The notes below the pieces were generated by a model. The model saw only the letters and a list, made by a program, of their open reading frames with translations, had not been told where the DNA came from and did no database searches. A stretch of DNA of 64,000 nt from Octopus vulgaris (Eukaryota). Where the stretch lies: the NCBI GenBank assembly GCA_951406725.2, contig OX597822.1, positions 17,360,001 to 17,424,000 on the forward strand. Direction: 5' to 3'. Positions 1,230-61,500 of the stretch are shown in pieces. Each line of letters starts with the position of its first letter. Within the stretch, counting starts at the first letter, position 1. A program made the position numbers and the translations under genes.

Positions 1230-2160
1230 GCTTGCTGTGTCAGATGATTGGACAGGAGAGCCAGCAAGCCAGAAGACTGGACCAAGCTCTGCTGTTTGTT
1301 TTATCATGGTCTCTATGGTTGGATGCCCTTCCTAATGTTACCCACTTTACAGTGTGTACTGCGTGCTTTTTACGCAGCACCAAGTAACTTGCAAGACAAG
1401 ACCCCCCCAACTGATGGGTAAGCAGTATTGAGGGAAGTGGCTTAGTGCCAGGTGATGAGAAGTTAGATTATGAAGAGAGACAGAAACAAGTTACTTCAGT
1501 TGGAGAGAGAATGGAAAAAGAGAGTGGTGAGATCAAGAAGAGATAAGAGAGGAGAGAGATGGTGAAGATGTAATGTGGCATACAGCCAAGTTGCAGGGAA
1601 GTGTGTAGTGAAGTGAACCAGGGGTTGAATAGGATGAGTGGGATGTGGAGGGGAGGGGAATGTAGTGAGTGGGCACAAACAGAGGGAGGGGCATGGATAT
1701 GTTGTAGGGAAGAGATGGACAGGGACATATTGTGTGAAGGTGGATTTGTGAGGAAAGTGAGAGAGAGAGATGAGGGGTATGCAGCGAGTGGGGAATACAA
1801 ATGGGGGAAGGTGTTGGGAAGGTTGATGTAAAGGAAAGGTTTGTTAGGGACAGATTGTATACAGGAGCATGGACATAGAGGTCACACCATTTTGGCCATG
1901 ATTTTACTCGGCTGGGTAGGTTTTCTCAAGCAGAGCAAGTCACCAATTGGTCCATTGTCATCTCCTCTGTGAGGCTCAAAATCTGAAGATTATTTTCCAA
2001 AATTTCCTCCCATATCTTCCTAGATCTTCTTCCACATTTCTTCCATATTTAGAGATCATTATGAAGCTGTCTTCATCCATACACATCACATGACCAAAAA
2101 AGAGCAGTCTTCTCTCTTGCACAATACATCTGATGCCCATCTTCAGGAAAACATTCACAC
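1230..2160 (-). mobile_element. Old RTE LINE 3' fragment with pyrimidine-rich 3' UTR
   Basis: ORF 1976-2158 MGIRCIVQERRLLFFGHVMCMDEDS. GA-rich tract on + at 1500-1860. Tail motif ggatgcccttcctaatg. Confidence 0.75.
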
Positions 2161-4258
2161 TTAAAATTCACATATCTCAACATCAAACTTGAAACAATAT
2201 TTTGAACCTTCACCTGGAAAATTTATATGTTGAAAATATCAAAAGCTACATTGAACACGTTATTATACCAAAACATGTTACTTATAAACAAATGTGGATT
2301 CCATTCATTATATGCAATTCTATCATGTACTCCAGTAAAACCAGTTTTTCAAATGTTAGTTTAATGAAGTATATTTTGTAACGTAGCATTTGTCATCTGA
2401 TGATGAATGGAGACTAAACTGCCTGAAACATGTTTGAAAATAGTGAGAGAGAGAAAAAAGAAAAATAACAGAAAATATCTGCCATATGGCATTATGATCA
2501 AATACAGGCGATAAACCATGATTTTAAGGCTGATAGGCAAATTTGATTATCCAATTGAATTCTAAGGTTAGTAGCCATGATGATAGTATGATAATCCAAA
2601 GGAAGAAACTGCATTGAATGTATGGTAATCAATCTTCAACAACGGAAATCTAGTTCTGAAGAATATATATTTCTTGACAACACATTGCAATGGATGCTAA
2701 ATAATCATTTGTATTGTAAGTTACAACACTTTGCAAAAATGACTATACACACACAAAATGATGTGCAAACACTGAAAACAAATGCTGTTTTAATTCCTTC
2801 AGAATATAAATGGTATACCACCAATGCCTGTAAAATCAACCTAACTGACAAAGTCTCTTCAGAAACTTTCTCTTTTGCAGAGAGACAACATAGCCTAAAA
2901 CAGAGGTGTCAAACTTGTTGGAGCTGCTTGAGGCTTCAAATTTACACATATACACTTTTGTGCATTCACACACCTACACACACACACACTAGTAAATGGT
3001 TGCATATGTAGGGCAAGTTGGCCATGTCACTTCTCAGCCTGTTTGAAGATCAGCATTGTAAACAAATATATGGTGATGACATCTCACATGAAAGTATAAA
3101 CTTTCACATGTACCAAACATATGCATGGTTCTCAACTGACTGGTTGTCATCCTATTGCCAATTTATATGCTGCACATATTGTCAGCCAACCAGGAGTAAC
3201 AATATAAAAGCACTGATTGATCTGTTCATTCCAGTATAGCTCATAGAAACCTATTTCTATGATATCTGTGATTCTAGGACTTTGCCAGGCAGTAACAGCA
3301 ATTTATTTATTTCTACTTGAATATGATCCCATGTGGAACTGCAAATAGTATCAATGTAAAAGGAACATGTGACCGACGTATAGGTCAAAAACAGATGTCA
3401 TCCTATTATGAATGTATAGAAGGTGTAACTTGTCTACCATCGAAACTTATATGTAAGTATGTAAGATAGAGATAGATCTAAGAAAGCACAACGCCACATG
3501 GTTGAGAACATACTAAAAAACTTGAGAATACAAGCAAAAACTAATTTGACTCCAGAGTGAACTATACAAACCTTTTGACATAAAATTTGGAATGTGTCTT
3601 ATTTTATTGAAGAGTGAAAGGTTTTGATAATACTCATAAGAATATCAAGGTACCTAAGTTAGACAAACGTGTAGGATAAAATTATACAAATTGCATGACA
3701 AAAACATTGAGAAACTTCAAGAACACTTCAGATGGTGATTTCTGTAGTTAACGTGAAGAATTTGATGATTACCAATAGTGTAGAGTAAAACACATGGATG
3801 GTACAGGCATTTTATTGTTTATGTTGTTATTGCTTTATAAACAACAAGGATGCTTGGCCAACAGGTACTTCTATATTTGTTAGAGATGGTAGCTATATGT
3901 TCTAGTACTGGCATTTTTGATATTTCTTACATAACAATATGTAACATAAATCATCTGCAGTCTTGTGAAGATTCCCCTCAGATGTAGAAGATACTATAAT
4001 TCACAAACTAATCAGTCTCTTTTTTGAGTGCCGAGAGGCTGGGGGAATATCTAAAACAATAAGCATTTTCTACAAAATACCCACATAAGAAATACAAGAA
4101 TACGGGAAGCTAAAAGGAAATATCCAGATTGAAGATTCCGTTACAGATAGATTTCGATTACACAATTCAATAGCAGCAGAAAGTAAATAATGAAAATAAT
4201 ATTTCCGAAAGCAAAAGAATCATGAGAAACTGTTGAACAGTAATGATGATAATGATTA

Positions 4259-4301
<43 letters not shown>

Positions 4302-5029
4302 ATATGTACATATGTATATTTATATCATCATCATCCACTTCATTGTACATATATATAGCTTTCCAATACATTTACAAAAAAATGAACTCATAATGCTTAA
4401 ATAATTTCAGTTTTCTTTTACAGAAATAAATAATTAGTTTTCTTGATTGCTTATGCCATTTTGGAAGCAAAGCCATTTCATCAGTAAATCTCAGCTTAGA
4501 AGTTCACCTTAATCTAAATTTCTGTCATTTAAATTATCCAGAATCAGACTGAAATATTATTTAACCTTTTAAATTTTGCTTCAATAAGATGTCCAAAAAA
4601 GCAAAAAAACCATCAGAAACTCTGGAGTGATCAGTGGAGATAAAAAAAGGGAAAAATGAAAGTGCAGCTGGTAATTTTGAGTTTAATAAATTTTAATATA
4701 ATGGTTGTAAGACATCAAGTTTATTTTAAGTGAATGTCTTCAAATCAAAAAAATTTTCACAGATGCACATTCCATATTAGTTGGTACACATAATGATTTG
4801 TTCAACCTGCCAAGAGATATGGCAACACCAGAGCTGAAGGAAAGTGAAGATATTGATTTCTAACATAAGCACAAGGCCTCAAATTCTGGGCTTCAAGTAT
4901 AGTCAACACTGACCCAGGTACTTGACTAGCACTCACTTTATTGACCTCAGAAGGATGAACAACAAAGTTAACCTCAGCAGGATTTAAAAGCAGAACAAAA
5001 AAGATTGTTACTAAATATCACTCACTTGT

Positions 5030-5360
5030 TGAAAATACTGGCACTCTGACAGTTACAACAAGGGTTCCAGTTGGTCTGATCTCAATGGTAAAGCTTGCCT
5101 GTGGAATTACTTTTCAAGTGGCTGAGCAGTCAACAGCCCATGTACCCTTAATGTGGTTCTCAGGGAGATTCCACATAACACAGAATGTGACAAGGCTAGC
5201 TCTTTGAAATACTGGTACTATTCATTTTTGCCAGCTAAGTGGACTGGAGCAATGTGAAATAAAGAATCTTGCTCAAGGATACAACAAGCTGTCAGGAACA
5301 GAACTCATGACCTTCTGATTGTGAGCCAAATACTCTAACCACTAAGCCATATGCTTTCAT
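5030..5360 (-). mobile_element. tRNA-headed SINE family C
   Basis: Reverse strand tggcttagtggttagag...gagttctgttcc..ccttgagcaag..ctttatttcacattgctccagtccac. Confidence 0.7.
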
Positions 5361-5811
5361 TACTTGTTCAAAATACGATTCTGAAAGACATCATGTTTCC
5401 AAGCTCTTTATTTGAGCTAACAAGAGAAACCTCTCTAGCCAGAAGTAGGAGTCAAATATTTCACATTTTACACCCTACAATCTAATAAAAAAGAAACATG
5501 TATTGTATAATACAACACTGGATATATAAAAAAAAAAACCTTGTTGGCCAAATTGATATGTTTTAAGTTTTCAACAATAGCATGTTTTATGCTTACACTA
5601 AAATGTCTCGTAAAAGCTTACTAGTGATTGAAATGGGAAATGGTTAACAATAGTTCCAAATGTTGAAGTGCTAACATTTACGAATTTAATCAAGAAATGC
5701 CTTCAGAGATAATGAATATATGAAATAATTTCAAAGCAATCTATTCAAATTAAATTATCACTCATTGATTGACAAAACTGAAACCATTTTATTGTCAATA
5801 TTACCATTAGT

Positions 5812-6035
5812 CTAAGGTGGTGAGCTGGTGGAATTGTTAGAACACCAGGCAAAATGTTTAGAGGCATTTTGTTTGTCTGAAAGTTCTGAGTTCAAATTAC
5901 AACAACATAGACTTTGCCTTTCATCCTTTCAGGGTCGATAAAATAAGTACCAGTTGAGAACTGGGGTTGATGTAATTAATTTAGCACCCCACTACCCCTG
6001 AAATTACTGGCTTTGTATCAAATTCTGAAACCAAC
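5812..6035 (+). mobile_element. SINE family B (copies at about 4850-5020-, 7866-8060+, 23550-23710+, 25270-25410+, 32370-32545-)
   Basis: taaggtggtgagctgg..gagttcaaatt..gactttgcctttcatcctttc.gggtcgataaaataagtaccag recurs at each site. Confidence 0.8.
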
Positions 6036-7759
6036 ATTTGTTAGTTTCCAGTAGTTCAAATATGATTTTCAAGTAGACTGATATACTTGTTCTCAGTCAT
6101 TCCTGAGTAAACTTGACTGTCTGTTTGCCTGTCTCCAAGTTTTACTCTATTCCAGAAACTGAATATCAACTACTCCTACCATTGGTTCAGCAAATAAATC
6201 CCGAAGTAGTCTTATAAACTCAGACTATTAAAGGCATAAAACTTACTACACCAACCAATATCTCTAATGAGTAGCCTATTTCTCAACTCACATGGAATTG
6301 GACGAATTGTTTCAGCTGAGATGCTTTGTGATATCTGTTCTTGTTCTTTCTATTCTGGAGGCAATGCCTCCAACAACACCAGTTCCAAGCAGTACTGAAC
6401 TTGATCATTCTTTTGGGCAACATGAGTGACATGGAGTGAAGAATTTGCTGCATGATTAACTACTGGCCTTGCATAAAAATACTTGTTCAAGGCTATCTAT
6501 ATCTTGGAAAGAAACTTTCCAGATGCAGATAGTTAACCTTGTCCAACAGAAGCCTTATGTACACACAAAAATACATATACATACAAGGAAAGCAAACAAG
6601 AGTAGAGGTGAGAGGGAGGGGGGAGTTAAATTTGCCAAACTTCATATCACTTAAAATAAACACAATGCAAAATGTTTTTTGAGAAATTAGCTTCTTTTCA
6701 TAACCAAATTTCTATCATCTTTAATGAATGTCATAAAAGTTTCATCCCTTGCTGTTTCTTGGATTACTTCACACCTTAAAAATACAATTGTTATGATTTC
6801 ACCCTTCCACATTCAGATTACTCTGCCAATATGTAACGCTTATTTATACACAATGTTTTGTATTAATCATGCATTATCTCATAGCTTTGAGATTTTGATG
6901 ATACGATTGTTTATTTTAAGGATGACACCACACTGACTCCTACCTCCAATCTTTTTTTCCCAGGATGCTGACCTTCAAGAATTTCTTGCCAACATAATCT
7001 TTTTTACAGATGGAAATGTTCAAGAGGAAAATCAATCTGACTAACCACAAAAGAAGGCCAAGGGTATAGACCCAAATCTCCAACTCTAAGCCAAACCAAT
7101 AATGAAAACAGGGGGATAGGAAAGAAATGGCAGCATGAATGAAATGTCTATATACAGCTATAATGAAAAATATTGATATTTTTGCTTAATTTAAATACTT
7201 TGACTAAATACTTATTTTCCAAAGAAATATATCTTAGAGGAAAGAAAAATATAAACCAAGCAATAAAAAAAATATTGAAATGAAAACATCAAGTCGATTT
7301 TTCTCAAAAAACTAAAATATGACTCTGCAATTATAAAGACCATATGAACTTCAAGTAGACATTAAATATTAGTCAAACTGCTAATATCTTAAAACTTTTA
7401 TTCACAGTTGTTTGATCATTTTTTAGCACAGTTGAAAAATTAAGGCTAGTCTGATTAATAAAGTCAGTTTACCAAGAAAGCAAAATAATGAATGAAGATT
7501 AATTGATGCTGAACATTTTTAAAATTTCAATAATCAAAATAAATTAATAAAAAATGGTTATGTTTTAACAACACCAACAACACCAATAGACATTTCTGAT
7601 TTATGCAAGCATTTTTGAGGTTTGTCATTTATGCACAAAGAAATGATTCAGTATCATCACTAGAACATGACTGGTACTTTATTTTGTTGACCCTGCAGGG
7701 ATAAAATAACATGTGATAAGAAAGTGCCTGTGCAAACCAAGCGCAATGAATAACACGTA

Positions 7760-7794
<35 letters not shown>

Positions 7795-8084
7795 TAATAA
7801 TGATAATAATAATAATAATAATAATAATTATTATTATTATTAATAATAATTATTATAATAACTATTAAGGTGGCAAGCTGGGCAAAATTCTTAGTGGCAG
7901 TTTGCCTCTCTTTAATTCTGAGTTTGAATTCCACCAAGGTCCACTTTGCCTGTCATCCTTTTGGGGTTGGTGAAATAGGTACCAGTTGAGTAATGGAGGT
8001 TGATGCAATCAACTTAGCCCTTCCCACAAAACTTCAGACCTTGTGCCTATAGTTGAAAGGATTATTATCATCATCATTGTTTTA

Positions 8085-8745
8085 CTTCTGGCAGGTTCTG
8101 TGAGAGCGAACAGTAGCCTGCTGTCAGAGGTCTCACAGGGTCTCTTTCCACACAATATAAGCTTTGATACTTGGTTGTTAATTATTGTGGGAGACATTGA
8201 ACATCCAAGTACCAATCTCAAAATCCTAGCTGTCCCTAGCATAGCAGGCTTCCTCTGCTCTCATGACAATTCTGATTTCTCTGACATATTTCTCAAACTT
8301 GGTTGTCAGTGCCCTGAGTGCCCCCACAACTACTGGAATGACAGACACTCTCCTTATAGTCCACATTCTTGCAATTTCATCTTTTAGTAGTCTGTACTTT
8401 TCAATCTTTTCTCATTGTTTGTCACTTTTGCATGCATCTCCAGGTATTGCTACATCTATGATTTTAGTTTCCTCTTTTTTCCTTTATCTATCACAAGAAT
8501 ATCTGGTCTCTGAGCCTTGATTAGGGAGTCACATTGGATTATAAATCCAACAGTATCTCATGTTCCTTGTTCTTCTGGTTCATGTTAGTACCATTTCTGT
8601 GCTCTGTTCAGGCTGTACTTTACACATAACCTCCAGTGGACAAACCTAGCCACGTTATACTTCCTTTTGTAGTGCTTTGAGCCAGCTTGCTACACTCACT
8701 CACGATATGTGAGATTGTTTCATTTCTGCTGCCACACATCCTATG
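8085..8745 (-). mobile_element. R4/Dong-type (restriction-like endonuclease) non-LTR retrotransposon 3' fragment
   Basis: Reverse strand: zinc-knuckle part RMCGSRNETISHIVSEC, then VARFVHWRLC, RPDILVIDK..IIDVAIPGD, EKIEKY..LKDEIARMW, VIPVVVGAL, LGTARILRLVL. Ends in a (gat)/(aat) tail. Confidence 0.85.
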
Positions 8746-8936
8746 AAGGGGCAATTTGCTACTTTTATTTATTTGGAACTGGGTGTAATTAGTTTTCAGC
8801 GCTTGTTCCTGGGTGCTGCTTCTATCTCTCTCTCTCTCTCTCTCATATCGTCGTCACCATCATCATCATCGTTATTATTATTATTATTGGGGCATTTCTT
8901 CTGGCTATATATATCAGTTAAAGATATACTCATAAA

Positions 8937-9067
8937 GATGTGGCAGTGTGGTAAGAAGCTTGCTTCCCAACCACATGGTTCCAGGTTTAATACCACTGCA
9001 TGACGCTTTGGCAACCAAAACCTTATGAAGAGATTTGGTAGACAGAAACTAAAAAAACTTGTCATAG

Positions 9068-32200: not shown

Positions 32201-33529
32201 ATGCATATGCTTCATCATAATTTAGGCAGTACATATGTTCAAAAGTATAAAAAAAAAAGATTTTTTAATACTAGTTACATTTCTATTTAATGTGCAATTT
32301 ATAATAATTCCTGTAAAATTAAAATTGGGACTAAAACGTTTACAAACACAGGGGGAACATAACATCTTAAAATAGATATTGGGCTCAAATTATGGTGCAA
32401 GGCCAGGAATTTCAAGGAAGGGGTAAGTCAATTACATTAACACCTGACTGGTACTTATTTTACTGATCCCAAAAGTCTTCTTCAATGGAATTCAAACTTA
32501 AAATGTAGACAAAACACTGCAAAGCATTTTGCTTATTGTGCTAATAATATTAAAAACATTTTACTCTCAAATAAAAAGTCATTTTTTCATTACACTCATA
32601 GGTGTAGGCATGGTTGTGTGGCAAGAAGCCTGCTTCCTAACCACATGGTTCTAGGTTCAGTCCCACTGAGTGGCACACTGGGTGAGTGTCTTCTACTATA
32701 GCCTTTGGTCAACCAAAGCTTTGTGAGAAGATTTGGTAGATGGAAACTAGAAGAAGCCCAGTGTATGTGTGTGTATGTGTGTCTTTGTTTGTCCCCCACC
32801 ACCACTTGATAACCGTCGTTGGTGTGTTTACAACCCTGTCACTTAGCAGTTTGTCAAAAAACACAGGCTTAACATTAAAAAAATTAAGTCCTGGGGGCCA
32901 ATTCACTTGACTCAAAATTCTTCAAGGTGGTGTTCCAGCATGGTCACAGTCTAATGACTGAAACAAGTAAAAGATAAAAGATAAAAATAAGAAATCAAAT
33001 ATGTTAAATGAGCAGCATTACAACATATACCATATTTTCATACTTGCTACTCAAAGTGTTTACGCTGGTGATGCTTATATGAATGACTACCTTTAAACCT
33101 TATCAAATAGTCAGAAGTACAGCTTCAACATTTCACAATCGTTCTCTCAATACACTATCTGAATACAGTCCTGCAGAGTAGTGTAATGGATATGACTATT
33201 GATTTCCTGTGCTGCTGATGGCTTAAGTTCAATCTTACATAATAGACATATGTGTAGACATATGGAATACAATAATATACAAAATTCAGTTTAGATAAGA
33301 ACGGAAAAGAGCAGGTAAATGAATACATACAAGCATCTTACTTAGTTAATATATTTAATATCATATATCTTAATGTTGTTCATGAAAAAATTTTTTTTAT
33401 GAATAGGAAAATCATCCATATGTAAATGCTATAGACTGATGTAGTTCATAAGACTTTATAAGACACAATTTTGTGTTACTGTCCAAAATAATAGTAATGC
33501 ATTTTTGTTGACATTAAATAAGCATTCAT

Positions 33530-33573
<44 letters not shown>

Positions 33574-33761
33574 ACAACCTATAAAGTATCTTAAAGTAAT
33601 CTTTAAACTAAACATAGAGCTGTTCATTAAAAAGACCCAATATCAATTTGCTTTTCAACATATAAATGCTTATGTAGCTAGAAATAAAATGTAAAATAAA
33701 TATTAAAATTTCTATATAACTACAATGACAGAAGTAAAGCAATTAATGATCCCTTAATTTA

Positions 33762-33914
33762 GTGGCTGTGTGGTATGTAGCTTGCTTACCAACCACATGA
33801 GTCCGGGTTCATTCCCACTGCATGGCACCTTGGGCAAGTGTCTTCAACTATAGCCTCGGGCCGACCAAAGCCTTGTGAGTGGATTTGGTAGATGGAAACT
33901 GAAAGAACCCCGTC

Positions 33915-33955
<41 letters not shown>

Positions 33956-34170
33956 TATATGTGTGTGTATATGTCCATGTGTCTGTGTTTTTCCCCCCAA
34001 CATTGCTTGGTGTGTTTACGTTCCTGTAACTTAGCGGTTCTGCAAAAGAGACCGATAGAATAAGTACTAGGCTTCCAAAGAATAAGTGCTGGAGTTGGTT
34101 TGCTCGACTAAAGGCGGTGCTCCAGCATGGCCACAGTCAAATGACTGAAACAAGTAAAAGAGAAAAAAAA
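33762..34170 (+). mobile_element. SINE family A, well-preserved copy
   Basis: Same head, core and tail as 650-1062. Duplicated at 35925-36330. Confidence 0.85.
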
Positions 34171-34274
34171 ATAAGTGCATAACCTTGCAGAAACTAGTTT
34201 TGTTATTTGTTTACAAGGAAATCTTCTCCTAATTTATGGCTAGTGAAGATCTAGTATTATTATTTTAGATTCAT

Positions 34275-34832
34275 GTGTTAAGAAACAGATTTGGAAACAT
34301 CAAAAAATATACACCTGTTACTAGTCCAACAGTAAAGAAGAGGAAAAATAGAAATAGGAAGATCATCTGGTTTACACCCCCTTACTCACCCGAGGTGACC
34401 TTCAATATAGGTAAATATTTCTTAACATTGATAGATAGACATTTTCCAGTTAACCATACTTATAGGAAGCTCTTCAATAAACATCAATTTAAAAATTAGT
34501 TTTATTCAACTACCAATTTTAAAAATATAATCACACATAACACACAAAAGCCACAACAAGAAAACAGCTGTTCATGCAGGAATAAAAAATTGTGCCCGCT
34601 AAATGGAGCTTGCATGTCCGAGACCATCATCTATGAAGCTACCGTGGACTCTATAACCACTAAAGACACCGTTTCGACGAAGTAATACGTGGGCCTTACA
34701 GAGGGTAATTTCAAGGCCAGGTTCAATAATCACACCTGAGTTTTAGGCACTGGAACAAAAGAAAAGCGACAAAATTATTTAATCATATTTGGTCTTTAAA
34801 AGATAAAGGTGTCGATTATAACATCCATTAGA
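34275..34832 (+). mobile_element. Duplicate, further-truncated copy of the Penelope GIY-YIG fragment (inside the tandem duplication)
   Basis: Near-identical to 36435-36992 and cut at the duplication junction. Confidence 0.88.
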
Positions 34833-35694
34833 CAGTGGCACACTGGGTGAGTGTCTTCTACTATAGCCTTTGGTCAACCAAAGCTTTGTGAGAAGATTTG
34901 GTAGATGGAAACTAGAAGAAGCCCAGTGTATGTGTGTGTATGTGTGTCTTTGTTTGTCCCCCACCACCACTTGATAACCGTCGTTGGTGTGTTTACAACC
35001 CTGTCACTTAGCAGTTTGTCAAAAAACACAGGCTTAACATTAAAAAAATTAAGTCCTGGGGGCCAATTCACTTGACTCAAAATTCTTCAAGGTGGTGTTC
35101 CAGCATGGTCACAGTCTAATGACTGAAACAAGTAAAAGATAAAAGATAAAAATAAGAAATCAAATATGTTAAATGAGCAGCATTACAACATATACCATAT
35201 TTTCATACTTGCTACTCAAAGTGTTTACGCTGGTGATGCTTATATGAATGACTACCTTTAAACCTTATCAAATAGTCAGAAGTACAGCTTCAACATTTCA
35301 CAATCGTTCTCTCAATACACTATCTGAATACAGTCCTGCAGAGTAGTGTAATGGATATGACTATTGATTTCCTGTGCTGCTGATGGCTTAAGTTCAATCT
35401 TACATAATAGACATATGTGTAGACATATGGAATACAATAATATACAAAATTCAGTTTAGATAAGAACGGAAAAGAGCAGGTAAATGAATACATACAAGCA
35501 TCTTACTTAGTTAATATATTTAATATCATATATCTTAATGTTGTTCATGAAAAAATTTTTTTTATGAATAGGAAAATCATCCATATGTAAATGCTATAGA
35601 CTGATGTAGTTCATAAGACTTTATAAGACACAATTTTGTGTTACTGTCCAAAATAATAGTAATGCATTTTTGTTGACATTAAATAAGCATTCAT

Positions 35695-35738
<44 letters not shown>

Positions 35739-36080
35739 ACAACCTATAAAGTATCTTAAAGTAATCTTTAAACTAAACATAGAGCTGTTCATTAAAAAGA
35801 CCCAATATCAATTTGCTTTTCAACATATAAATGCTTATGTAGCTAGAAATAAAATGTAAAATAAATATTAAAATTTCTATATAACTACAATGACAGAAGT
35901 AAAGCAATTAATGATCCCTTAATTTAGTGGCTGTGTGGTATGTAGCTTGCTTACCAACCACATGAGTCCGGGTTCATTCCCACTGCATGGCACCTTGGGC
36001 AAGTGTCTTCAACTATAGCCTCGGGCCGACCAAAGCCTTGTGAGTGGATTTGGTAGATGGAAACTGAAAGAACCCCGTCG

Positions 36081-36112
<32 letters not shown>

Positions 36113-36434
36113 TATATGTGTGTGTGTATATGTCCATGTGTCTGTGTTTTTCCCCCCAACATTGCTTGGTGTGTTTACGTTCCTGTAACTTAGCGGTTCT
36201 GCAAAAGAGACCGATAGAATAAGTACTAGGCTTCCAAAGAATAAGTGCTGGAGTTGGTTTGCTCGACTAAAGGCGGTGCTCCAGCATGGCCACAGTCAAA
36301 TGACTGAAACAAGTAAAAGAGAAAAAAAAATAAGTGCATAACCTTGCAGAAACTAGTTTTGTTATTTGTTTACAAGGAAATCTTCTCCTAATTTATGGCT
36401 AGTGAAGATCTAGTATTATTATTTTAGATTCATG

Positions 36435-38060
36435 TGTTAAGAAACAGATTTGGAAACATCAAAAAATATACACCTGTTACTAGTCCAACAGTAAAGAAGA
36501 GGAAAAATAGAAATAGGAAGATCATCTGGTTTACACCCCCCTTACTCACCCGAGGTGACCTTCAATATAGGTAAATATTTCTTAACATTGATAGATAGAC
36601 ATTTTCCAGTTAACCATACTTATAGGAAGCTCTTCAATAAACACAATTTAAAAATTAGTTTTATTCAACTACCAATTTTAAAAATATAATCACACATAAC
36701 ACACAAAAGCCACAACAAGAAAACAGCTGTTCATGCAGGAATAAAAAATTGTGCCCGCTAAATGGAGCTTGCATGTCCGAGACCATCATCTATGAAGCTA
36801 CCGTGGACTCTATAACCACTAAAGACACCGTTTCGACGAAGTAATACGTGGGCCTTACAGAGGGTAATTTCAAGGCCAGGTTCAATAATCACACCTTGAG
36901 TTTTAGGCACTGGAACAAAAGAAAAGCGACAAAATTATTTAATCATATTTGGTCTTTAAAAGATAAAGGTGTCGATTATAACATCCATTAGAAGATTTTG
37001 GCCAAATGTAAGCCCTACACCAACGGCAGCGGAAAGTGCGGTCTATGTGACATGGAGAGATGGTTTATCTGGAAAAGCAGCTTAGACCCTACTACATGTC
37101 TAAACTCAAGGACAGAAGTTTTTGGATCATGCCCACATGTGACAAAATTTTTGTTACGTTTTTGGTCCCCTAAAGAAAACAGATAGAACTTGCTTTCTAT
37201 ATTATGTCCCAAAAAGATTTTTATCTCATTATACCTTTTATTATTTCATATATTTTTATATTTTCACACATAATAATTTTTTCTGTACTCTTCCATCCTG
37301 CATTTTTTCCTGTGCCTATATAGACATGTATATAGATTCATTTGTACACGTGTGTGAATATGTATGAGTGGGCAGTTCTAGATGTGTGCCTGTGTGCGGA
37401 CATAAGAATGCATATATATATAGAAGTTTTTACTTAGTATTTTTCCATTTTTAAAGGGTTTTGGGGGGGGGGAGGGGGCATATGTATATTCATTTTTTGT
37501 GTATGCATGTGTGTGTATGCGTATATAAACATGTGCAGGTATGTACATATATGGGTGTGTGTGTGTATGAGTGCATAAGGGCATGTCCGTATATGAACGT
37601 GGTTTTTATGCTTTGTATACATCCTTATGTTTTTTTATGTTACCTTTAACCATGGTTTTTCTTGTGCTTGTGTGTATATAGACGTATGTATGAACATTTA
37701 CGGTACGCATGTGTGTGCGTATGAGTTTATATATATATGCATATGTATTTGGCGAAAAATGCGAGTGAAGATGTGTATGTTTTCATAGTGACGTATAAGT
37801 ACGCACATGGATCCGCAAGCGCACATGTGAGCATATGACTAGCCATGTTTTACGTGTTTACTATGAAATTTTAATCTTATTTTATATAAGTAGCAGAATT
37901 ATAACACAGTAATTTCCCTTTATATAACGGTATTTTTTCATAGCGTTTTTTCAGATGGCCAGATAACCGAAGAGATGGTGTTGTGGATTTCCACTTCGGC
38001 ATCTGAAACTCAGAGTTTTATCTTGACTATTGAGTAATTGTAACATATTATTTTATAGAT
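36435..38060 (+). mobile_element. 5'-truncated Penelope-like element (GIY-YIG endonuclease region, 3' UTR and pLTR with hammerhead)
   Basis: Translates across frameshifts to RKIIWFTPPYS...CSCRNKKLCPLNGACM..IIYEATV...YVGLTEGNFKARFNNH..SF...LFNHIWSLKDK...KCGLCDME...LNSRTEVFGSCPH, the typical PLE C-terminus. A hammerhead motif lies at 37961-38023 and the element ends in (TA)n. Confidence 0.9.
37961..38023 (+). ncRNA. Minimal type-I hammerhead ribozyme (CCGAAGA core variant) in the Penelope pLTR
   Basis: agataa-CCGAAGA-gatg...catc t-GAAAC-tc a ga-GTT-ttatct. Stem I agataa/ttatct, stem II gatg/catc with inner gtgg/ccac, stem III actc/gagt. Confidence 0.7.
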
Positions 38061-38137
38061 ATAGATATATATATATATGTATGTATCATCATCATCATCA
38101 TATATATATATATATATATATATTTATGTATCATCAT

Positions 38138-40179: not shown

Positions 40180-40837
40180 TCAGGGTGAATACTTGATAAT
40201 TGTAAGCACCTGTATATACTGTTTGGTGGTGTAGGTGGTGGAGTAAATTAATCAAAATAAAAACATGATGCCAAGGATTCAGCAGTACATATGTTTCGGG
40301 CCTTTATTAGACGGATTTATAACAATGCATAATGTGTGTCTATGGCCTTCTTCAGCCGCGCACAACTACTACCTCAAGGACATGTATTACATCAAAAATT
40401 CTACGTTGGGGATGCAAATCCTCTCATTCACGTACGACATAATGCGGCAACAGCATAAAAATGAAGCGTCCATCTCGTCCTTCTCTCAATGTAGAATGAG
40501 GAAGTTTGGATGTTGAGGTAATATAAATAAATGAATAAATAAATATATACATATAAATACAGACAGACGTGAAGGAACCTGGTAATAAGAGCAAATAGGG
40601 ATAAATATGGAAGGGCGAGAATTCAGGACGAAGGATAAAAAAAAAAAAATTTTTTTAAAAATATATATATATAAAAAGTGTAAGTATAGAAAAATATAAA
40701 AATGTAGAGTATAAAGATATAAAGAGATATAGAAAAATATAGGCCATAGACACACATTATGCATTGTTATAAATCCGTCTAATAAAGGCCCGAAACATAT
40801 GTACTGCTGAATCCTTGGCATCATGTTTTTATTTTGA

Positions 40838-40841
<4 letters not shown>
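40176..40841. mobile_element. Rearranged copy of the 880-bp HHR element, with a perfect 101-bp inverted repeat
   Basis: 40248-40348 and 40741-40841 are exact reverse complements. 40176-40245 matches the reverse complement of about 57757-57826. (TA)n on both sides. Confidence 0.88.
40282..40359 (-). ncRNA. Type-I hammerhead ribozyme
   Basis: Reverse strand: gcgg-CTGAAGA-aggcc...ggccc-GAAAC-atat-GTA-ctgc. Stem III is the palindrome ACATATGT. Confidence 0.8.
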
Positions 40842-43084: not shown

Positions 43085-46000
43085 TTGCTCATGACTTCTG
43101 CCAAATGCGAGTTTTCTTTTCAGGTACATGAAACAACTGTCCACCGTCCTAGGGTCTCTAGGGCACATACCTCCCACACCATCAGGGTTGGCACCCTCAA
43201 CGTTGGCACACTGAAAGGTAGGTCTGGCGAGATAGTCGAGATGCTTGAACGGAGGGAGATGTGTTGATATATGTTGCATCCAAGAAGTAAGGTGGAGAGG
43301 AGGTTCTGCTAGATTCCTCACAGGCAAAGAACACAGGTACAAGATTTTCTGCGCAGGGAACACTGATGGGGTTGGTGGCGTGGGTATACTTATCGCTGAA
43401 AAATGGGTAGATAAAGTAATTGAGGTAATCAGAGTAGGTGACAGAATACTTAAGATTAGATTAGAGCTTCATCATGGATTAGCAACCATTATATCGGCCT
43501 ATGCTCCTCAGCCGGGGCTACCCGATGGACAGAAAGACCGATTCTACGACACTCTACTGCAGACTACCTCGTTGACGAACGACAGAGACCTTCTCTTTGT
43601 GGCTGGTGACTTCAACGGTCACGTTGGACGACATGATGGGGGCTTCCATGGTGTACATGGAGGCTATGGTTAAGGTTCCCGCAACGAGGAGGGAACTAGG
43701 CTGCTGGAGTTCTGCGATGCAAATGATCTTATGGTCTGCAACACTAACTTCAGGAAACCTACCAGTCACCTAGTCACCTAATGATTGGGCTGACATACCA
43801 GCCAAATTGACTACATGCTTGCCAGGAAAAGGGAAAGATGGCTGCTTATAAATGCCAAAACCTTCCCAGGCAAAGAATGTACCCCGCAACATAGACTGGT
43901 AGTTAGTGACTTTAGGATCAGGACTAAGAGGACGACCAGAAGATGACCAACATGGAGAAGAAGGATGTGGAAGCTTAAAGATCCTGCGAATGGACAGAGA
44001 TTTAGGGACATATTACTTGAAGCCTTTGACGAAGTAGAAGGGGATAGAGCATCACATGGGGTAGAAGCCACTGACCAGATCTGTGGCTGGTGCAAAGTCC
44101 CCTCTCAACCCAAAATAACGTGGTGGTGGAACAATGTTGTAGACAGGGCTATTAGAGAAAAGAGACAGGCTTGGAAGGACTGGAAGAATGGTGGTAGCAG
44201 GGAATTGTATCAGACTGCCAAAAGGGAAGCTAGGAGACAGGTCTATTTAGCCAGAGGGGAAGCAGATAAGAAAAAATTTGCCAATGTTCTGCACCGTGAG
44301 GACCAAAGACTTGAGGTGTTTCGTGGTTCACTTGTGCTAAATGAGGATGCAAAGAGAGAGGTTTGGAGATGCCACTATGAAAGGTTGCTGAATAAAGAAA
44401 ATGAATGGGATAAAGAGAGTCTGCCGAATGTCGACCCAACAGAGGGATGAGCTATCCGAGTTGACAGTTCCTTGGTAGTTAAGGCAATTAGAAGCATGAA
44501 GACAGGGAAAGCCCCAGGCCCTTCAGGAATCACTGCAGAGATGCTCAAAATATCTGGTAGTGTCAGCTATAGCCTAGTCACCCGTATAGTTAATCAGGTG
44601 ATACACGAAGGAGTCATACCCAATGACTGGTGTAGCAGCATAATAGTCAACTGCTACAAAGGTAAAGGTGACGCCCTAGATACAAATAATTACAGTGGTA
44701 TCAAGCTGTTTGATCAGGTAATGAAGGTTACGGAGAGGATCATAGCCCAATTAATTAGAGAGGGAGAGTTAATTTAGATGAGATACAGTTTGGGTTCGTG
44801 CCAGGGAAAAGTACCACAGATGCTATATTCCTGGTAAGGCAGCTGCAGGAGAAATACCTAGTCAAAGATAAGCCCCTGTACCTGGCTTTTGTTGACATAG
44901 AGAAAGCCTTCAACAGGGTCCCCCAATCCCTTATCTGGTGGTCAATGAGGAAACTAGGGATAGATGAATGGTTAGTGAGAGCTGTGTGAGCCATGTACAG
45001 GGACGCCGCTAGTAAGGTGAGGGTTGGCAATGAGTACAGTGAAGAATTCCGGGTAGAGGTAGGGGTCCACCAAGGCTCAGTCCTCAGCCCCCTCCTATTT
45101 ATCATAGTCCTCCAGGCAATAACGGAGGAATTCAAGACAGAATGCCCCTGGGAGCTCCTCTATGACCTTGCTCTAATTGCTGAGTCACTATCAGAACTGG
45201 AGGAGAAGTTTCAGGTGTGAAAGCAAGGATTAGAATCGAAGGGCCTTAGAGTCAACCTAGCTAAAACCAAAGTCCTAATAAGTAGGAAGGTAGACAAATC
45301 ACAAATGTCTTCAGGTAGATGGCCCTGCTCGATCTGTAGAAAAGGTGTAGGTAGAAACTCTATAAGATGCACCAAGTGTAAGCTATGGACACATAAGAGG
45401 TGCAGCAATGTCAAAGGAAGGCTAACTAGGAAGATAGTATGTGGCAGATGCTCAGGAGCAATAAACACTGAAAATGCCCTGAGACCTACTTCTGCCACAT
45501 TCCAGGGAGAAAAACTAGAAATAGTTGATAGCTTCCGTTACCTAGGTGACCAAGTCAGTAGCGGGGGAGGGTGTGTTGAAAGTATAACTGCTAGAGTAAG
45601 AATAGCTTGGGCAAGGTTCAGAGAGCCCTTACCTCTGCTGGTGACAAAAGGCCTCTCGCTCAGAGTAAAAGGCAGACTGTATGACGCGTGTGTACGAACA
45701 GCCATGCTACACGGCAGTGAAACATGGGCCGTGACTGCTGAGGATATGCGTAATCTCGCAAGAAATGAAGCCAGTATGCTCCGATGGATGTGTAATGTCA
45801 GTGTTCATACTCGACAGAGTGTAAGTACCTTGAGAGAAAAGCTGGACCTAAGAAGCATCAGTTGTGGTGTGCAAGAGAGACGTTTGCGCTGGTATGGTCA
45901 TGTGCCGAGAATGGATGAAGATAGTTGTGTGAAAAAGTGCCATACCCTAGCAGTTGAGGGAACCTGTGGAAGAGGCAGACCCAGGAAAACCTGGGACGAG

Positions 46001-46578
46001 GTGGTGAAGCACGACCTTCGAACTTTAGGTTTCACTGAGGAAATAACTAGAGACCGAGACCTTTGGAAGTGTGCTGTGCGTGAGAAGACTGGGCAGGACA
46101 AGTGAGACTATAACCCGGGATGTGCCAGTCCACTTATGCATACCTTTCATTCTGGGGACACAAAACTCTACTTGTGAAGACGTTGAGGCAAGTGAGAATC
46201 AAAATCGATCAACATCAATGGAAATTGCAGCTGTGATACCAGTGCCGGTGGCACGTAAGAGAGCCATCCGAATGTGGCCGTTGCCAGCGCTGCCCCGACT
46301 GGCCTCGTGCCAGTGGTATGTAAAAAGCCTCGCCTGGCCCCCGTGCCGGTGGCACTTAGAAAGCACCATCCGAATGTGGCCGTTTGCCAGCCCCGTCTAG
46401 CACCTGTGCCGGTGGCACGTGAAAAGCACCTACTACACTCACGGAGTGGTTGGCGTTAGGAAGGGCATCCAGCCATAGAAACATTGTCAGATCGGACTGG
46501 GCCTGGTGCAGCCTTCTGGCTTCCCAGAACCCAGTTGAACCGTCCAGCCCATGCTAGCATGGAAAGCGGACGCTAAAC

Positions 46579-55812: not shown

Positions 55813-55842
<30 letters not shown>

Positions 55843-55848
<6 letters not shown>

Positions 55849-56524
55849 GTAAATATATGGTACAACGAAGTACCGATATTTACTGGCAGTAAGACAATTT
55901 TTTTCAATTTTGTTGCACACACGCATTTTTGCTAGTACATACGTGGTAAAGCTATACATTAGCGTCGTATTTATTACGTTCGCTATTTTCCAGTAAATAT
56001 CGGTACTTCGTTGTGCCATATATTTACTTCTATGTATAATTTTCCCTCACGGGCTATTCTTTACTGGAAAGCAATACTCTCGTATTGCATTACTATTTTT
56101 ATTGAAACTTCTTCACTGTTCTCGTTCTGTCAGCGTTTGGCGTTTCAGTCGAGTGTATTGGCATTGATGCGGCAACATTTGAAATGTTGTCGAGGTATAT
56201 GTTGGCTGATGAAGATAAATCAAGTATGTGTGCAGACATATCTTGAAAAATCTGAAACCAGTACCACATTATCCCATTCTAGGTATTTCATCTTTCAGAT
56301 GTTCTCCCTGGAGGTAAGACAATTTAAAAAAATTTTGTTGCACACACACATTTTTGCTAGTACATACGCGGTGAAGCTATACATTAGTGTCGTATTTATT
56401 ACGTTCGCTATTTTCCAGTAAATATCGGTACTTCGTTGTACCATATATTTACTTCTATGTATAATTTTCTCTCACGGGCTATTCTTTACTGGAAAGCAAT
56501 ACTCTCGTATTGCATTACTATTTA
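55843..56524 (+). mobile_element. Non-coding HHR-containing tandem element (425-nt unit, about 1.5 copies, 5' inverted piece), flanked by (TA)n
   Basis: 55889-56100 is repeated at 56314-56524. 55843-55886 is the reverse complement of an internal segment. HHR at 56201-56267. Confidence 0.8.
56201..56267 (+). ncRNA. Minimal type-I hammerhead ribozyme with canonical core
   Basis: tgg-CTGATGA-agat..tcaag...cttga..atct-GAAAC-ca-GTA-cca. All core nucleotides are present. Confidence 0.8.
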
Positions 56525-56528
56525 TATA

Positions 56529-56574
<46 letters not shown>

Positions 56575-56640
56575 ATTTTATTTGTTAGGGAATAAAAATT
56601 CCGGCATAACAGGGGTTCAAATTATTCTCAATGACAAAAT

Positions 56641-56926
56641 ATATATTTTCACTTAGAGATAGTAGGCCCCTTCATCTCACCATATAAAAAAGAATTTTTA
56701 TTTTAAATACCTACAACTTTACAACTTGGCTATACGTGTTTCATGAGGTACATTTCCCAGTTTCTAAACCACTCCGTGTTTTGCTGGAGCCATTCTTAAA
56801 ATATAACGGGAAATGTACCTCATGAAACACATGTAGCCAAGTTATAAAGTAGTAGGTATTTGAAATAAAAATTCTTTTTTATATGGTGAGATGAAGGGGC
56901 CTACTATCTCTAAATGAAAATATATA
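56641..56926. repeat. Fold-back (arms about 118 bp, 56641-56758 / 56808-56926)
   Basis: agagatagtaggccccttcatctcaccatat.../...atatggtgagatgaaggggcctactatctct. The arms carry GAAAC-acat-GTA-gcc and GAAAC-acgt-ATA-gcc. Confidence 0.9.
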
Positions 56927-56946
56927 TATATACATATATATATATA

Positions 56947-57826
56947 TTAATCAAAATAAAAACATGACTCAAAGGATTTAGCGGTACATATGTTTCGGGC
57001 CTTTATTAGACAGTTTTATAACAATGCATAATTGATGTAAATGTGTGTCTATGTCCTTTTTCAGCCGCGTACAATTACTACTTCAAGGACATATATTACA
57101 TTGTAAGTTTTACGTTGGGGATGCAAATCCTTATAGTCACGTACGACAGAGTGGGGCACCAACACAAAATCAAAGCGTCCATCCTGCTTTTGACTTGATG
57201 TAGAATGAGGAAGTTTGGATGTTGAGCTAGAGAGGGAAGGGGTTGGGGGGGTTGAATCTTTAGTGAGTTAGGGATCACAAAGGGGAAGTAAAAGAGTAAA
57301 AGATTACAAAAGAGTAAAAAAAATTTTTAAATTATATAAGAAAGATATAAGAATATAAAAAAATATATGAGAATATGAAAAATATATATAAGAATATAAA
57401 AAAAAAAGTATCTATGTATATAAATATATAAATAAATATATAAATATATATACATAAATACACAGGACGTGATAAAAACATGGTAATATAATTAATAGAG
57501 ATATAGATAAAGAAGCGAAAATTAAGGACGAAAAAAATAATAAGGATAAGAAAATAAAAGACTATATAAGGGGATGAAGGAAGAAATGTAAGGGGGTGAA
57601 GAACTAACAGGGTGGTCAGAAGATAGTGTATTCTGGTTGTTGAGGCCTACCTATGTTACGGCGGGTGTCATAAATTAACTGTCTGGAGACCAAGTAGATT
57701 GGTCAATCTCAGTTGTCTCGTTTGTGGCTAAACAGTTTATCTACTTCCTCCTAATATACTCTATCACCTACACCACTAAATGGTATATACAGGTGCTTAC
57801 AACTATCAAGTATTCACCCTGAATTT
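56947..57826 (-). mobile_element. 880-bp non-coding HHR-bearing element in TA-rich tracts
   Basis: Both termini and much of the body are shared with the element at 40176-40841. No protein-like ORF. HHR near the 3' end. Confidence 0.8.
56981..57068 (-). ncRNA. Hammerhead ribozyme, same family as 40282-40359, with a core mutation (CTGAAAA)
   Basis: Reverse strand: gcgg-CTGAAAA-aggac...ggccc-GAAAC-atat-GTA-ccgc. Confidence 0.7.
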
Positions 57827-57854
57827 ATATATATTTAAATTACTTAAATTACTT

Positions 57855-58325
57855 ATATATATATATATATATATTTATAAATAAGGATAATATCGATATT
57901 TAAATATTGATATTATCAAGTGGCCAGCATGGGAAAAAATACCGTACAAAGGTAATAATTTTTTACAACTAAAAATAAGGGTGTCTAAGAGACACCACCA
58001 TACCGAAATAGCAGTCAAAACCCTGACTTTAAAAACCACGTTAAATGTTCATATCGTACTATGAGATAAGACAGAGGGACAAAATAGGCTAGCTAAAAAT
58101 ATTATTGAATAATTCAAGATCCAGGATTTCTGGTTTTGCTTTAAATAAGCTTTACCATCATCGGTTGAATATATCATAGTTGAGTGCCCGAATAACATCC
58201 TTTAGCTTCATTGGAGCCTCAAATATGAAGTGCAATTTATTTGGGAGGAATATACAGGGAAGGCAGAACCAGTGAGAAAGTCATTGCTGATGCATATGAA
58301 AAGGTATATGTAATCATGACAATGA
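57855..58325 (-). mobile_element. Unclassified non-coding HHR-bearing insertion between TA tracts
   Basis: Complex sequence bounded by (TA)n, with an internal HHR at 58112-58170. Confidence 0.55.
58112..58170 (-). ncRNA. Type-I hammerhead ribozyme, CCGATGA core variant
   Basis: Reverse strand: attcaa-CCGATGA-tggt..gct..agc..acca-GAAA-tcc t gg-ATC-ttgaat. Stem I is 6 bp and all three helices pair. Confidence 0.72.
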
Positions 58326-58474
58326 ATATATATATATATATATATATATTCTTTATTTTCTCTCCTTGTTTCTTTCTATATTCCTTTCTGTGGAAGAGCG
58401 TAGGCTCAAAATGTTAAAGACTTATTCACTTCCCTAGCATTATACTAATACATCTGTTTGTTGTCTACACCACA

Positions 58475-58622
58475 CATACATACATACATACATACATACA
58501 TACATACATACATACATACATACATGCATGCATGCATGCATGCATGTATGTATGTATGTATGTATGTATGTATGTATGTATGTATGTATGTATGTATGTA
58601 TGTATGTATGTATGTATGTATA
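58475..58622. repeat. Palindromic microsatellite (CATA)n-(CATG)n-(TATG)n
   Basis: Direct reading. The two halves are reverse complements of each other. Confidence 0.95.
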
Positions 58623-59350
58623 TGCACACATCAATATGATATTGTTGTTTTTCCATTTACACAACATTTTCCTTTTGCTCTACATTGTTGCAGACTTGCA
58701 CATCCATGTACATACACACACCTACATATACATTCAAGAATGAACACAGGTAGACTTCAAACTTTATATTCTGAATCAAATATACTACTACAATATTTTA
58801 CAGTGGAGTCATTATTCCCACCTACACTAAAATATCTAATAATTTTGACTAGTTTAGTCAAATATTGGTCAAATAAATATTTAAATATGAAGCAAGTCAT
58901 CTCAAACTTATAGAGGAAATTTCATTTAAGTATTTATAATACTAGTTTATATGCTCAAAATCTTTGTGAAAGAAAACTAATTAATTTAGTGTCATAAAAT
59001 TTACAATTTCACCTGCTGTAACAGAATAATATTTTGTACCAATCCAAAAACAGCAAACAAAAAACCAGTGTAAGCCAGAATAAATTCATATTTTACTTCC
59101 ATTTGGAACATATATTCCTGTGACCATACACACATAAATGCACAGGCATCTTGTTGCAGTAAGAAGTTTGATTTGGAGCCACATCACTTGGAGTTCAGTT
59201 TGTGTATGTATGACTTATTGCATATTTGCCTTCTCTCGACATGCACACATAGATTGTAATCAAAGCATCACCATTCATTTATCCATATATAAACATATTT
59301 AAACAGGCCCATCCGTCCATCTATCTACATATACACAAGCATACAAAATT

Positions 59351-59586
59351 GAGATGACAAAGGAACAAACAATTATTTTATGAACTTTGTTAGCTTTGTT
59401 AGCTTACAGCTGTTTCTGTCATAGGATGCAGTTGGCTCATAGCTTCCTCACACTTCATGTCTGAAGCACCAATGAAACTATAAGGTGTTACTCAGGCACT
59501 TGGCTATGAGTCCACTGCACCTTATGGCAGAAACAGGTGTAAGCTGATGAAGTTCATAAAATAATTGTTTATTCCACTGCCATCTC
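59351..59586. repeat. Diverged fold-back (arms 59351-59443 / 59503-59586)
   Basis: aacaattattttatgaactt / aagttcataaaataattgtt. The arms contain GAAAC-ag(c/g)t-GTA-agc. Confidence 0.8.
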
Positions 59587-59743
59587 ATTTTCTCATTACT
59601 GCTCTGTACTCTACAAATGCTTCATTCTGAAGCATTATATATTGAATTCTACACCAGGTTATGAGTATCACAATGCCTAAGAAAATATTAAAACACATAC
59701 ATACACACACACACACACACACATATTTAATTCTTACATACCA

Positions 59744-60301
59744 TCTCTGATGAGGGGATATCTTTTATTTCCTGGAAGCAACTGGAAGACTACCCTCCTC
59801 TTTATAAAATGTCCTAGAAATTTCACACTTCCTTGGCTTTGTTGTCTCATTTTATTTAATCAATACATGCTCACACACAACCCACGTTAGACTCTTCACT
59901 CATACTATTATCGAAGCAGGCATTTCCCTTAAGGACACGCCTATTCCTTCACAAAACCTTTCCTCTTACTCACCAAAACTAAGGACCTCATCCAAAGAAT
60001 GCAGTGGAAAGCCTTCCTCCATGACAACCATAACAACCAGAGTGATAATAACATCAACACATACAATCTCTGATCCTACAAAAATTGTCCACACATTTGA
60101 ACTCTACTATTTCCTTCTATTAATCTCTCTCGTATCGTGTCTGATGAGGGGAAATCTTTTATATCCCTGAAGCAGCTGTAAGATTACCCGTCTCTTTATA
60201 AAATGTCCTAAAAATTTCACACTGCCTTGCCTTTGTTGTTTCATTTTATTTAACCAATACACACTCACACACGACCTACATTAGACTCCTCACTCATACT
60301 A
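59744..60301 (+). mobile_element. Mini Penelope derivative: pLTR - N-terminal ORF stub - pLTR (394-bp period)
   Basis: Direct repeats of about 160 bp starting at CTGATGA 59747 and 60141. The spacer translates SLKDTPIPSQ..TKTKDLIQRMQWKAFLHD, like PLE N-termini (SLKNIPIPS..FIKRMRWKAFF). Confidence 0.75.
60138..60183 (+). ncRNA. Degenerate hammerhead (second copy at about 59744-59790)
   Basis: CTGATGA-ggggaaat..atatccct-GAAGC-agct-GTA-aga. Both copies have GAAGC in place of GAAAC. Confidence 0.6.
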
Positions 60302-60769: not shown

Positions 60770-61500
60770 TCTTAAAGCAATCTTTCAGGGTCTGTTTAAG
60801 CATTATATATATTTTAAAAACAAGGATGCTGTACAGTAGGAAAATAAGAAAAAAACATGAAAATTTTGGTACAAAAAATGGAATGAGAAAAAGAAATGAC
60901 ATCAAGAAAACTAAGATCGTCATCCTCCTTGATTGCAGAAAGCTCATTAAATACAAATGGTTCAGAACAAAATAACAGGAAATATGTCAAAGTCTGCAAG
61001 AGACCAACTCGATCTGGTGTGGGTGAAGCTTTTCAAATTGAAAAAAGAAAACCTGTCCATGAATCTATACTTGCTAAAAATTTGCAAATAGCTGGACCTA
61101 AGAGATCCTTCTGCTACGCATAAGTTGCACTTCTTCAATTCATTAACATATGGCTTGGATTTCTCCTCTATTCTCTACTTAATTGCATGTGGTGTAGAGC
61201 TGTTCTTCTAATTCCATATGTGGCTTGCCAACTTAGTTGCATTGCTTTTATTGATGTGCCAGTCAGAAAGAAGACAGGTGGTTTGCATAATGTCTCTTGA
61301 ATTCACCCTCACATAACCCAATGGAACTCTTCTTTTCAACTGATTTGTCTTGGAGCATAGCTGTAACTTCAGCCTTGTATATGACAGAGTTTATCATACA
61401 TGCCTGGTCAAGTGGGCAAGCTTCAGGGTCCTAACAGTTACAACTGTTAGTGATTTTCACGAGTTATAGTGTACTTCATATTGGGGCAGCAGTTGTATAT
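60770..61500 (-). mobile_element. Second, diverged Penelope-like GIY-YIG remnant
   Basis: Reverse strand reads NSCNC*DPEACPLDQACMINSVIYKAEV...IGLCEGEFKRHYANHLSSF...ATKLASHIWN...KSKPYVNELKKCNLCVAE, with stops. Confidence 0.85.

Follow-up and report, generated by a model that had tools for sequence, protein, structure and literature searches.

Hammerhead ribozyme motifs clustered in Octopus vulgaris DNA as a probable pile of Penelope-like retroelement ends, with one family of A6U core

Introduction

The closest described counterparts of the motifs considered here are the minimal hammerhead ribozymes (HHRs) residing in the pseudo-long terminal repeats (pLTRs) of Penelope-like elements (PLEs) (PMC4209133). 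Inverted 5′ duplications are typical of PLE insertions, which also show a bias for microsatellites (PMC8557442), and the enzyme of a PLE reconstituted in vitro prefers AT; in the same system HHR cleavage required protein, and insertion was unimpaired by HHR mutants, with no read ending at the cut site (PMC11167929). The HHR core change A6C strongly lowers activity in Mg2+ (PMC3088659, PMC7151607). In the available text of an octopus repeat annotation, the words "ribozyme" and "hammerhead" have 0 occurrences (PMC13282606). Here we describe a stretch of 64,000 nt from Octopus vulgaris (contig OX597822.1, positions 17,360,001 to 17,424,000; "the window"), of which positions 55,843–60,301 carry a dense series of HHR motifs. 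An original prediction had seen in this region a hotspot of at least six HHR-bearing families, and had inferred that several non-autonomous ribozyme retroelement families repeatedly targeted the same TA microsatellite. We propose, with a probability of roughly 0.85, that eight distinct insertions are nested in this region. Their seven repeat families would be PLEs or non-coding derivatives of PLEs, in all likelihood without exception, and likely accumulated through endonucleases favouring (TA)n.

Composition of the cluster

Nine HHR motif sites were placed in the region, belonging to seven repeat families (A–G) and eight insertions (Table 1). All motif positions originally proposed were recovered and the idea of many families stood, with their count at seven. 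A second family F fragment, with a 5′ half-site at 58204–58218 (minus strand), had been missed. The family core is retained at only two of the nine sites, A (canonical) and D (a family variant). Elsewhere it is damaged by G8A in C, by G12A in E, by two core changes in F and by altered GAAA halves in both copies of G, while B and the extra F fragment hold HHR half-sites only; in the A copy, one change breaks the stem III palindrome. Most HHRs in the window are, as read from their cores, dead relics.

Half-sites had been proposed in two fold-backs. In the first (56641–56926) they are indeed present, but as 3′ halves only (56728–56747, minus; 56819–56838, plus), in arms (56639–56758 and 56808–56927) that are 95% complementary; the 5′ core missing from this copy of B is found in 9 of 19 other loci. 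The second (59351–59586) was found to contain a complete, decayed HHR of family F instead. A type-II HHR considered there was rejected, the CTGATGA after the 3′ half being a private change of the family sequence CTAATGA. For E, the proposed decay is seen in G12A and C15.2U, and this copy is likely dead, whereas its odd 5′ core (A6U) is the state of the family rather than damage. A palindromic (ACAT)n-(GCAT)n-(ATGT)n microsatellite (58474–58621) truncates E and attracts spurious Rfam matches to miRNA families.

Separation of the modules by TA runs, as originally described, applies in the window to A–E but not to F and G. By identity to their best copies, 94–97% for A–E against 84–89% for F and G, the latter two are older; about 720 bp matching no other locus separates them from A–E. 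Assembled contigs aligned to the region gave neither usable empty-site joints nor RNA ends.

Table 1. Features of the cluster and related elements elsewhere in the window (window coordinates)
Feature	Position	Strand	Description
Family A	55838..56527	+	Inverted 5′ piece 55838–55886, 425-nt unit 55883–56307, partial second unit 56308–56527; retrozyme-like
HHR A	56201..56267	+	Canonical core at 56206, GAAAC at 56254; fold z −3.0
(TA)n	56519..56571	.	3′ ends of A (left) and B (right) meet here
Family B	56572..56927	-	5′-truncated, inverted duplication; only HHR 3′ halves left
(TA)14	56920..56947	.	3′ end of C
Family C	56948..57830	-	Element 3′ end; at least 1.35 kb AT-rich upstream sequence common to copies
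HHR C	56981..57068	-	Decayed in window: G8A, stem II change
(TA)15	57854..57883	.	3′ end of D
Family D	57884..58180	-	Part of ~480-nt tandem unit
HHR D	58113..58170	-	U4C core, matching its subfamily
Second family F fragment	58175..58250	-	Decayed HHR 5′ half 58204–58218
(AT)12	58326..58349	.	5′ side of E
Family E	58350..58473	+	Truncated pLTR of coding PLE; motif at 58384–58420
Family F	59345..59600	+	Old copy, inverted duplication; inverted HHR 3′ half 59401–59416
HHR F	59466..59545	+	Complete, decayed
Family G	59724..60300	+	Two pLTR copies 394 nt apart; HHRs 59744–59789 and 60138–60183, both decayed
GIY-YIG PLE end, broken	36380..38080	+	Outside the cluster; own U4C HHR at 37963–38023
PLE endonuclease fragment, broken	61109..61448	-	Outside the cluster; 43–46% to 36.4-kb frame

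The families across the genome

First-look candidates in the 2.8-Gb genome numbered 1,781 (A), 675 (B), 1,823 (C), 2,594 (D), 1,906 (E), 1,492 (F) and 1,405 (G), with 40 scored per family. Among the aligned copies, all seven families have a complete minimal type-I HHR elsewhere, with a palindromic stem III that permits dimers; the modules are, as had been claimed, distinct multi-copy families with minimal HHRs of the Penelope type. The canonical core (CUGANGA, GAAA and UH, with stems I and II) is the family state in A, B, C, F and G, and is absent as such in D and E. A second form of A, with stem III longer by 6 nt, occurs in 12 of 30 aligned rows. Among the family A loci L015–L030, the longer palindromic stem III of this subfamily could fold as a monomer, and a double change in L028 preserves pairing.

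Copies of the families display 5′ truncation, an inverted 5′ piece, a partial tandem and an optional 3′ tail, features described for PLEs (PMC4209133, PMC8557442, PMC11167929); inverted 5′ pieces were seen at 2–11 loci per family except in E (0/24). A (TA)n end is the tendency in all seven families. A run of (TA)4 or longer starts at the family 3′ end in 35/46 (A), 22/26 (B), 24/30 (C), 27/29 (D), 14/24 (E), 14/32 (F) and 11/32 (G) copies, against 3–6% at background positions. The enrichment whose test had been suggested is present, also in F and G, whose window copies lack TA bounds.

Coding parents of families E and G

Families E and G are the 3′ ends (pLTRs) of coding PLEs. An endonuclease frame, which we take to be GIY-YIG-like from its motifs, lies upstream of E copies; as a query it gave 4,951 candidates, 150 of which were scored, and all six long-frame loci fetched from that query end in an E pLTR. 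Locus L338 has the order pLTR, 968-aa frame, pLTR, with an E-type HHR on each side of the frame and a reverse transcriptase (RT) that matches Pfam RVT_1 (E 6e-8). Its translation contains a CX4CX2C linker between RT and endonuclease (EN), in agreement with the CX2-5CxxC linker that is a trait of Neptune and also occurs in Nematis (PMC8557442). Since it has YIR in place of YIG, this copy may be inactive. A Pfam scan of four short endonuclease pieces yielded no match. For G, the evidence of a parent consists of the endonuclease part only: GIY-YIG-like coding sequence lies 0.75–1.9 kb upstream on the same strand at three of three long loci, which are 79–84% identical in DNA among themselves. The spacer between the two G pLTRs in the window (59910–60118) matches one other locus and presumably resembles the start of a PLE open reading frame (ORF). 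A link of family A to an endonuclease in locus L023 was rejected; (TA)n lies between the two, and the endonuclease is part of another element.

The label "non-autonomous" consequently fails for E and G. As pLTR ends, these two are ordinary parts of coding PLEs, an outcome that the original prediction had itself listed among those that would refute it, here found for two of the seven families.

Density of hammerhead motifs

The background consisted of 116 stretches of 10 kb (L176–L291, 1.16 Mb) taken at round coordinates and not formally random, and was searched with a purpose-built minimal-HHR descriptor; a descriptor lacking the 9a base found few sites. The clean version of the purpose-built descriptor gave 50 matches in the genomic sequence and 0 in shuffled sequence. 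Canonical cores gave 27–32 matches (0 shuffled), or 23–28 per Mb and an estimated 65,000–77,000 canonical-core HHRs genome-wide; at least 24 families were distinguished (Chao1 about 54). For comparison of densities, a library built from the background only was used. On this like-for-like basis the score of the region is 2, which 17 of 232 background windows also attain, and with a loose descriptor it is 3, attained by 2 of 232; it ranks in the top 1–7% of windows, with the background set slightly high by one contaminating library entry (12 matches, window 46716). Against a corrected mean of 0.54 per 4.46 kb, the eight insertions are an excess of about 15 times, but their count stems from a search of higher sensitivity, so that the two are not compared like-for-like. 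The region is a dense spot, but not an exceptional one, in a genome full of such ends: "hotspot" stands in that the region is denser than usual, and the excess over the genome-wide density is modest.

Origin of the cluster

Taken together, the multi-copy families, the full HHRs in other copies, the PLE signatures, the TA ends and the coding sequence of L338 and of G argue for a nest of PLE ends. PLE endonucleases would favour (TA)n, with target-primed insertion at TA. Reverse transcription likely starts in the pLTR, a short way downstream of the HHR, and halts early, so that the remnant would be a 3′ end with its HHR, to which an inverted piece (in A, B, C and F) or a partial tandem (in A and G) is often joined, and the TA left on the flanks would become a target again. 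The short tandem units of A and D would probably be mobilised in trans. In active parents, the HHR likely forms a dimer by way of its palindromic stem III and so cleaves the tandem precursor RNA, possibly assisted by the protein of the element; in family E, this reaction would take place with U replacing A6.

That all modules are instead independent retrozymes aimed at one TA hotspot, close to what had originally been proposed, is unlikely. It fits the head-to-tail units of A (425–433 nt) and D (about 480 nt), in which no coding sequence was found, and the TA runs adjoining A–E. It is refuted for E and G by their coding parents, and it does not sit well with the AT-rich upstream sequence shared among copies of B (at least 0.72 kb) and C (at least 1.35 kb), which has no consistent ORF, with F and G outside TA bounds, or with a density score matched in background windows. 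As mobilisers, the elements at 36.4 and 61 kb had been suggested. GIY-YIG-like fragments are present there (36.4–37.2 and 61.1–61.4 kb), but no link to the cluster was shown and the 36.4-kb element has a different HHR of its own. Chance resemblance in AT-rich repeats is barely credible: six of ten folded motif stretches have z above −2, and the Rfam/Infernal search that had been suggested returned 0 hammerheads at the gathering score and 0 among 54 matches at E ≤ 10, yet the 32 canonical matches compare with none in 1.16 Mb of shuffled sequence, and seven unrelated families display one common architecture.

Several observations weigh against a nest of PLE ends as set out above. The fetched loci yielded no coding parent for A–D or F, no genome-wide search for parents having been made. 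The p-values of the TA enrichment are inflated because the end windows were picked after inspection of the data. As counted for D and G, the stems show little covariation among copies of a family: D has a single compensated stem II pair, in three distinct rows (8/500 shuffles, relatedness not controlled), and G has none above shuffles (362/500), the copies within a family being too alike for a strong test. Finally, among 100 listed D matches, core positions 3–4 read CC in 49, TT in 37, CT (the canonical CU) in 12 and TC in 2. This variety looks like relaxed selection, and free drift of the core in D implies that amplification can do without a canonical core. Subfamilies of D with C3U (lacking a G8A partner), U4C and canonical cores coexist. 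On balance the cluster, read as a nest of PLE ends, is real but largely an ordinary pile, which is what PLE biology predicts; the question at stake is the role of PLE hammerheads, on which family E bears.

The A6U core of family E

The core of family E reads CUG-U-N-GA. An exact 27-mer with U6 has 15,730 copies in the genome against 602 with another base at position 6 (total 16,332), and U6 is present in 6/6 long-ORF elements. Of 100 listed non-U6 matches, about 71 have C, 19 A and 10 G, as later mutation from T would produce. At position 7, the U6 matches (100 listed) have A in 25, C in 22, G in 13 and T in 40. In 46 copies chosen independently of the core (the anchor, A9 to the 3′ strand of stem I, biases those columns and leaves C3–G8 free), U6 occurs in 42 and the remaining core positions are kept in 42–46, with N7 being A 16, T 14, C 11 and G 5, and H17 being A 35, T 8, C 2 and G 1. 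Minor bases make up at least 20% of a column in 2/35 columns of the HHR and in 38/104 of the flanks (Fisher p 2e-4). Avoidance of G17 is the hammerhead cleavage-site rule. The rule is consistent with PMC3884650.

In a tree of 82 rows, built with masked positions 6, 7 and 17 and weakly supported at many inner forks, the subfamilies form a ladder along which N7 and H17 switch repeatedly while U6 is constant; most A6 rows, taken from the non-U6 matches, lie scattered over it, with the exception of three old ones. The latter, E-like copies with canonical A6 (L296, L297 and L307), cluster with 89/94 support together with one C6 row, and are perhaps a canonical sister lineage. Since among subfamilies only the hammerhead-free positions N7 and H17 vary, the E core suggests a selected variant core. 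The pattern indicates that the motif was under selection while carrying U6; selection on U6 itself and cleavage are not implied.

Whether selection preserved cleavage or only a fold divides two readings. We put at even odds that the A6U motif has lost cleavage and persists either as a promoter part or as a folded structure by which the protein of the element takes hold. The activity loss of A6C, the dispensability of the HHR for insertion in vitro with the missing cut-site ends, and the spread of D with C3U and U4C cores all favour such a motif, whereas the confinement of variability to N7, with all four bases, and H17, together with the avoidance of G17, speaks against it. Somewhat below even odds, to our mind, is the fuller proposition that a highly successful autonomous PLE lineage of about 48,000 insertions kept a working A6U ribozyme, with U at a nominally invariant position, selection on the remainder of the core and probable dependence on dimers and protein, over at least five successive master subfamilies, in a host with about 100,000 HHR motifs of dozens of families; if so, few reported genomes would rival this one in hammerheads. 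If E still cuts, it would be a new natural hammerhead variant. To judge from search listings on octopus hammerheads and on A6U or U6 cores, no publication describes this variant; Lunse 2017, Arkhipova 2017, supplements and figures may contain A6U. Family E amounts to a natural experiment, in that its autonomous element is nearly intact and breaks a core rule with hammerhead-like conservation retained; comparison with the drifting core of D would tell apart a motif that must cleave and one that must fold. Descriptors demanding CUGANGA overlook this family, the commonest HHR-like one seen in the genome (11 of the 50 clean background matches fall in one cluster).

Other features of the window

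The U4C core in the pLTR of the 36.4-kb PLE recurs in three background copies (L185, L275, L283), and about 9,700 insertions of this type are estimated from 4 hits. Two near-identical copies of about 2.16 kb (32670–34830 and 34835–36990) form a tandem duplication, real or an assembly artefact, that ends inside the PLE endonuclease. A second relative of family C, arranged as an inverted pair, lies at 40180–40840 and carries a canonical HHR (40355, minus). Broken LINE reading frames at 43236–46105 (plus) are presumably RTE-like.

Comparison with known systems

The motifs resemble the minimal HHRs of PLE pLTRs in their short stem I, the extra base between 9 and 10.1 and the palindromic stem III, as well as in the prevalence of solitary truncated copies, the many families per genome and the pairs on opposite strands 100–700 bp apart. 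That work reports 2,000–9,000 HHRs per genome, against the 65,000–77,000 estimated here with a different descriptor, and describes a U3-A8 core variant where A6U is found here (PMC4209133). The two preferred 3′ ends of A, B, C, D and F are similar to the PLE tail, though spaced 60–95 nt rather than 30–40 bp (PMC11167929). With the EN+ PLEs of the Neptune/Nematis clade (PMC8557442), the E parent shares the RT, the CX4CX2C linker, the C-terminal GIY-YIG-like domain, pLTRs with an HHR and the (TA)n target, and it differs by its U6 core; the placement, taken from the linker, is provisional. Families A and D are comparable to animal non-LTR retrozymes (PMC7761336; bioRxiv 10.64898/2026.07.22.740005) in having non-coding units of 425–490 nt with a type-I HHR arranged head-to-tail, but, read from DNA only, they mostly comprise 1.3–1.5 units with PLE-style inversions instead of long arrays. 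Two same-strand HHR anchors were seen in 1/29 A and 1/24 D loci, D matches include pairs spaced by about 480 nt, and the window copies carry one HHR each. Among natural core variants (PMC3088659, PMC7151607), U4C, which has a counterpart in D and in the 36.4-kb PLE, and changes at position 6 are both tolerated at low activity. In contrast to those rare single cases (U4C in a viroid, A6C in a phage), family E comprises more than 15,000 exact copies with a fixed A6U.

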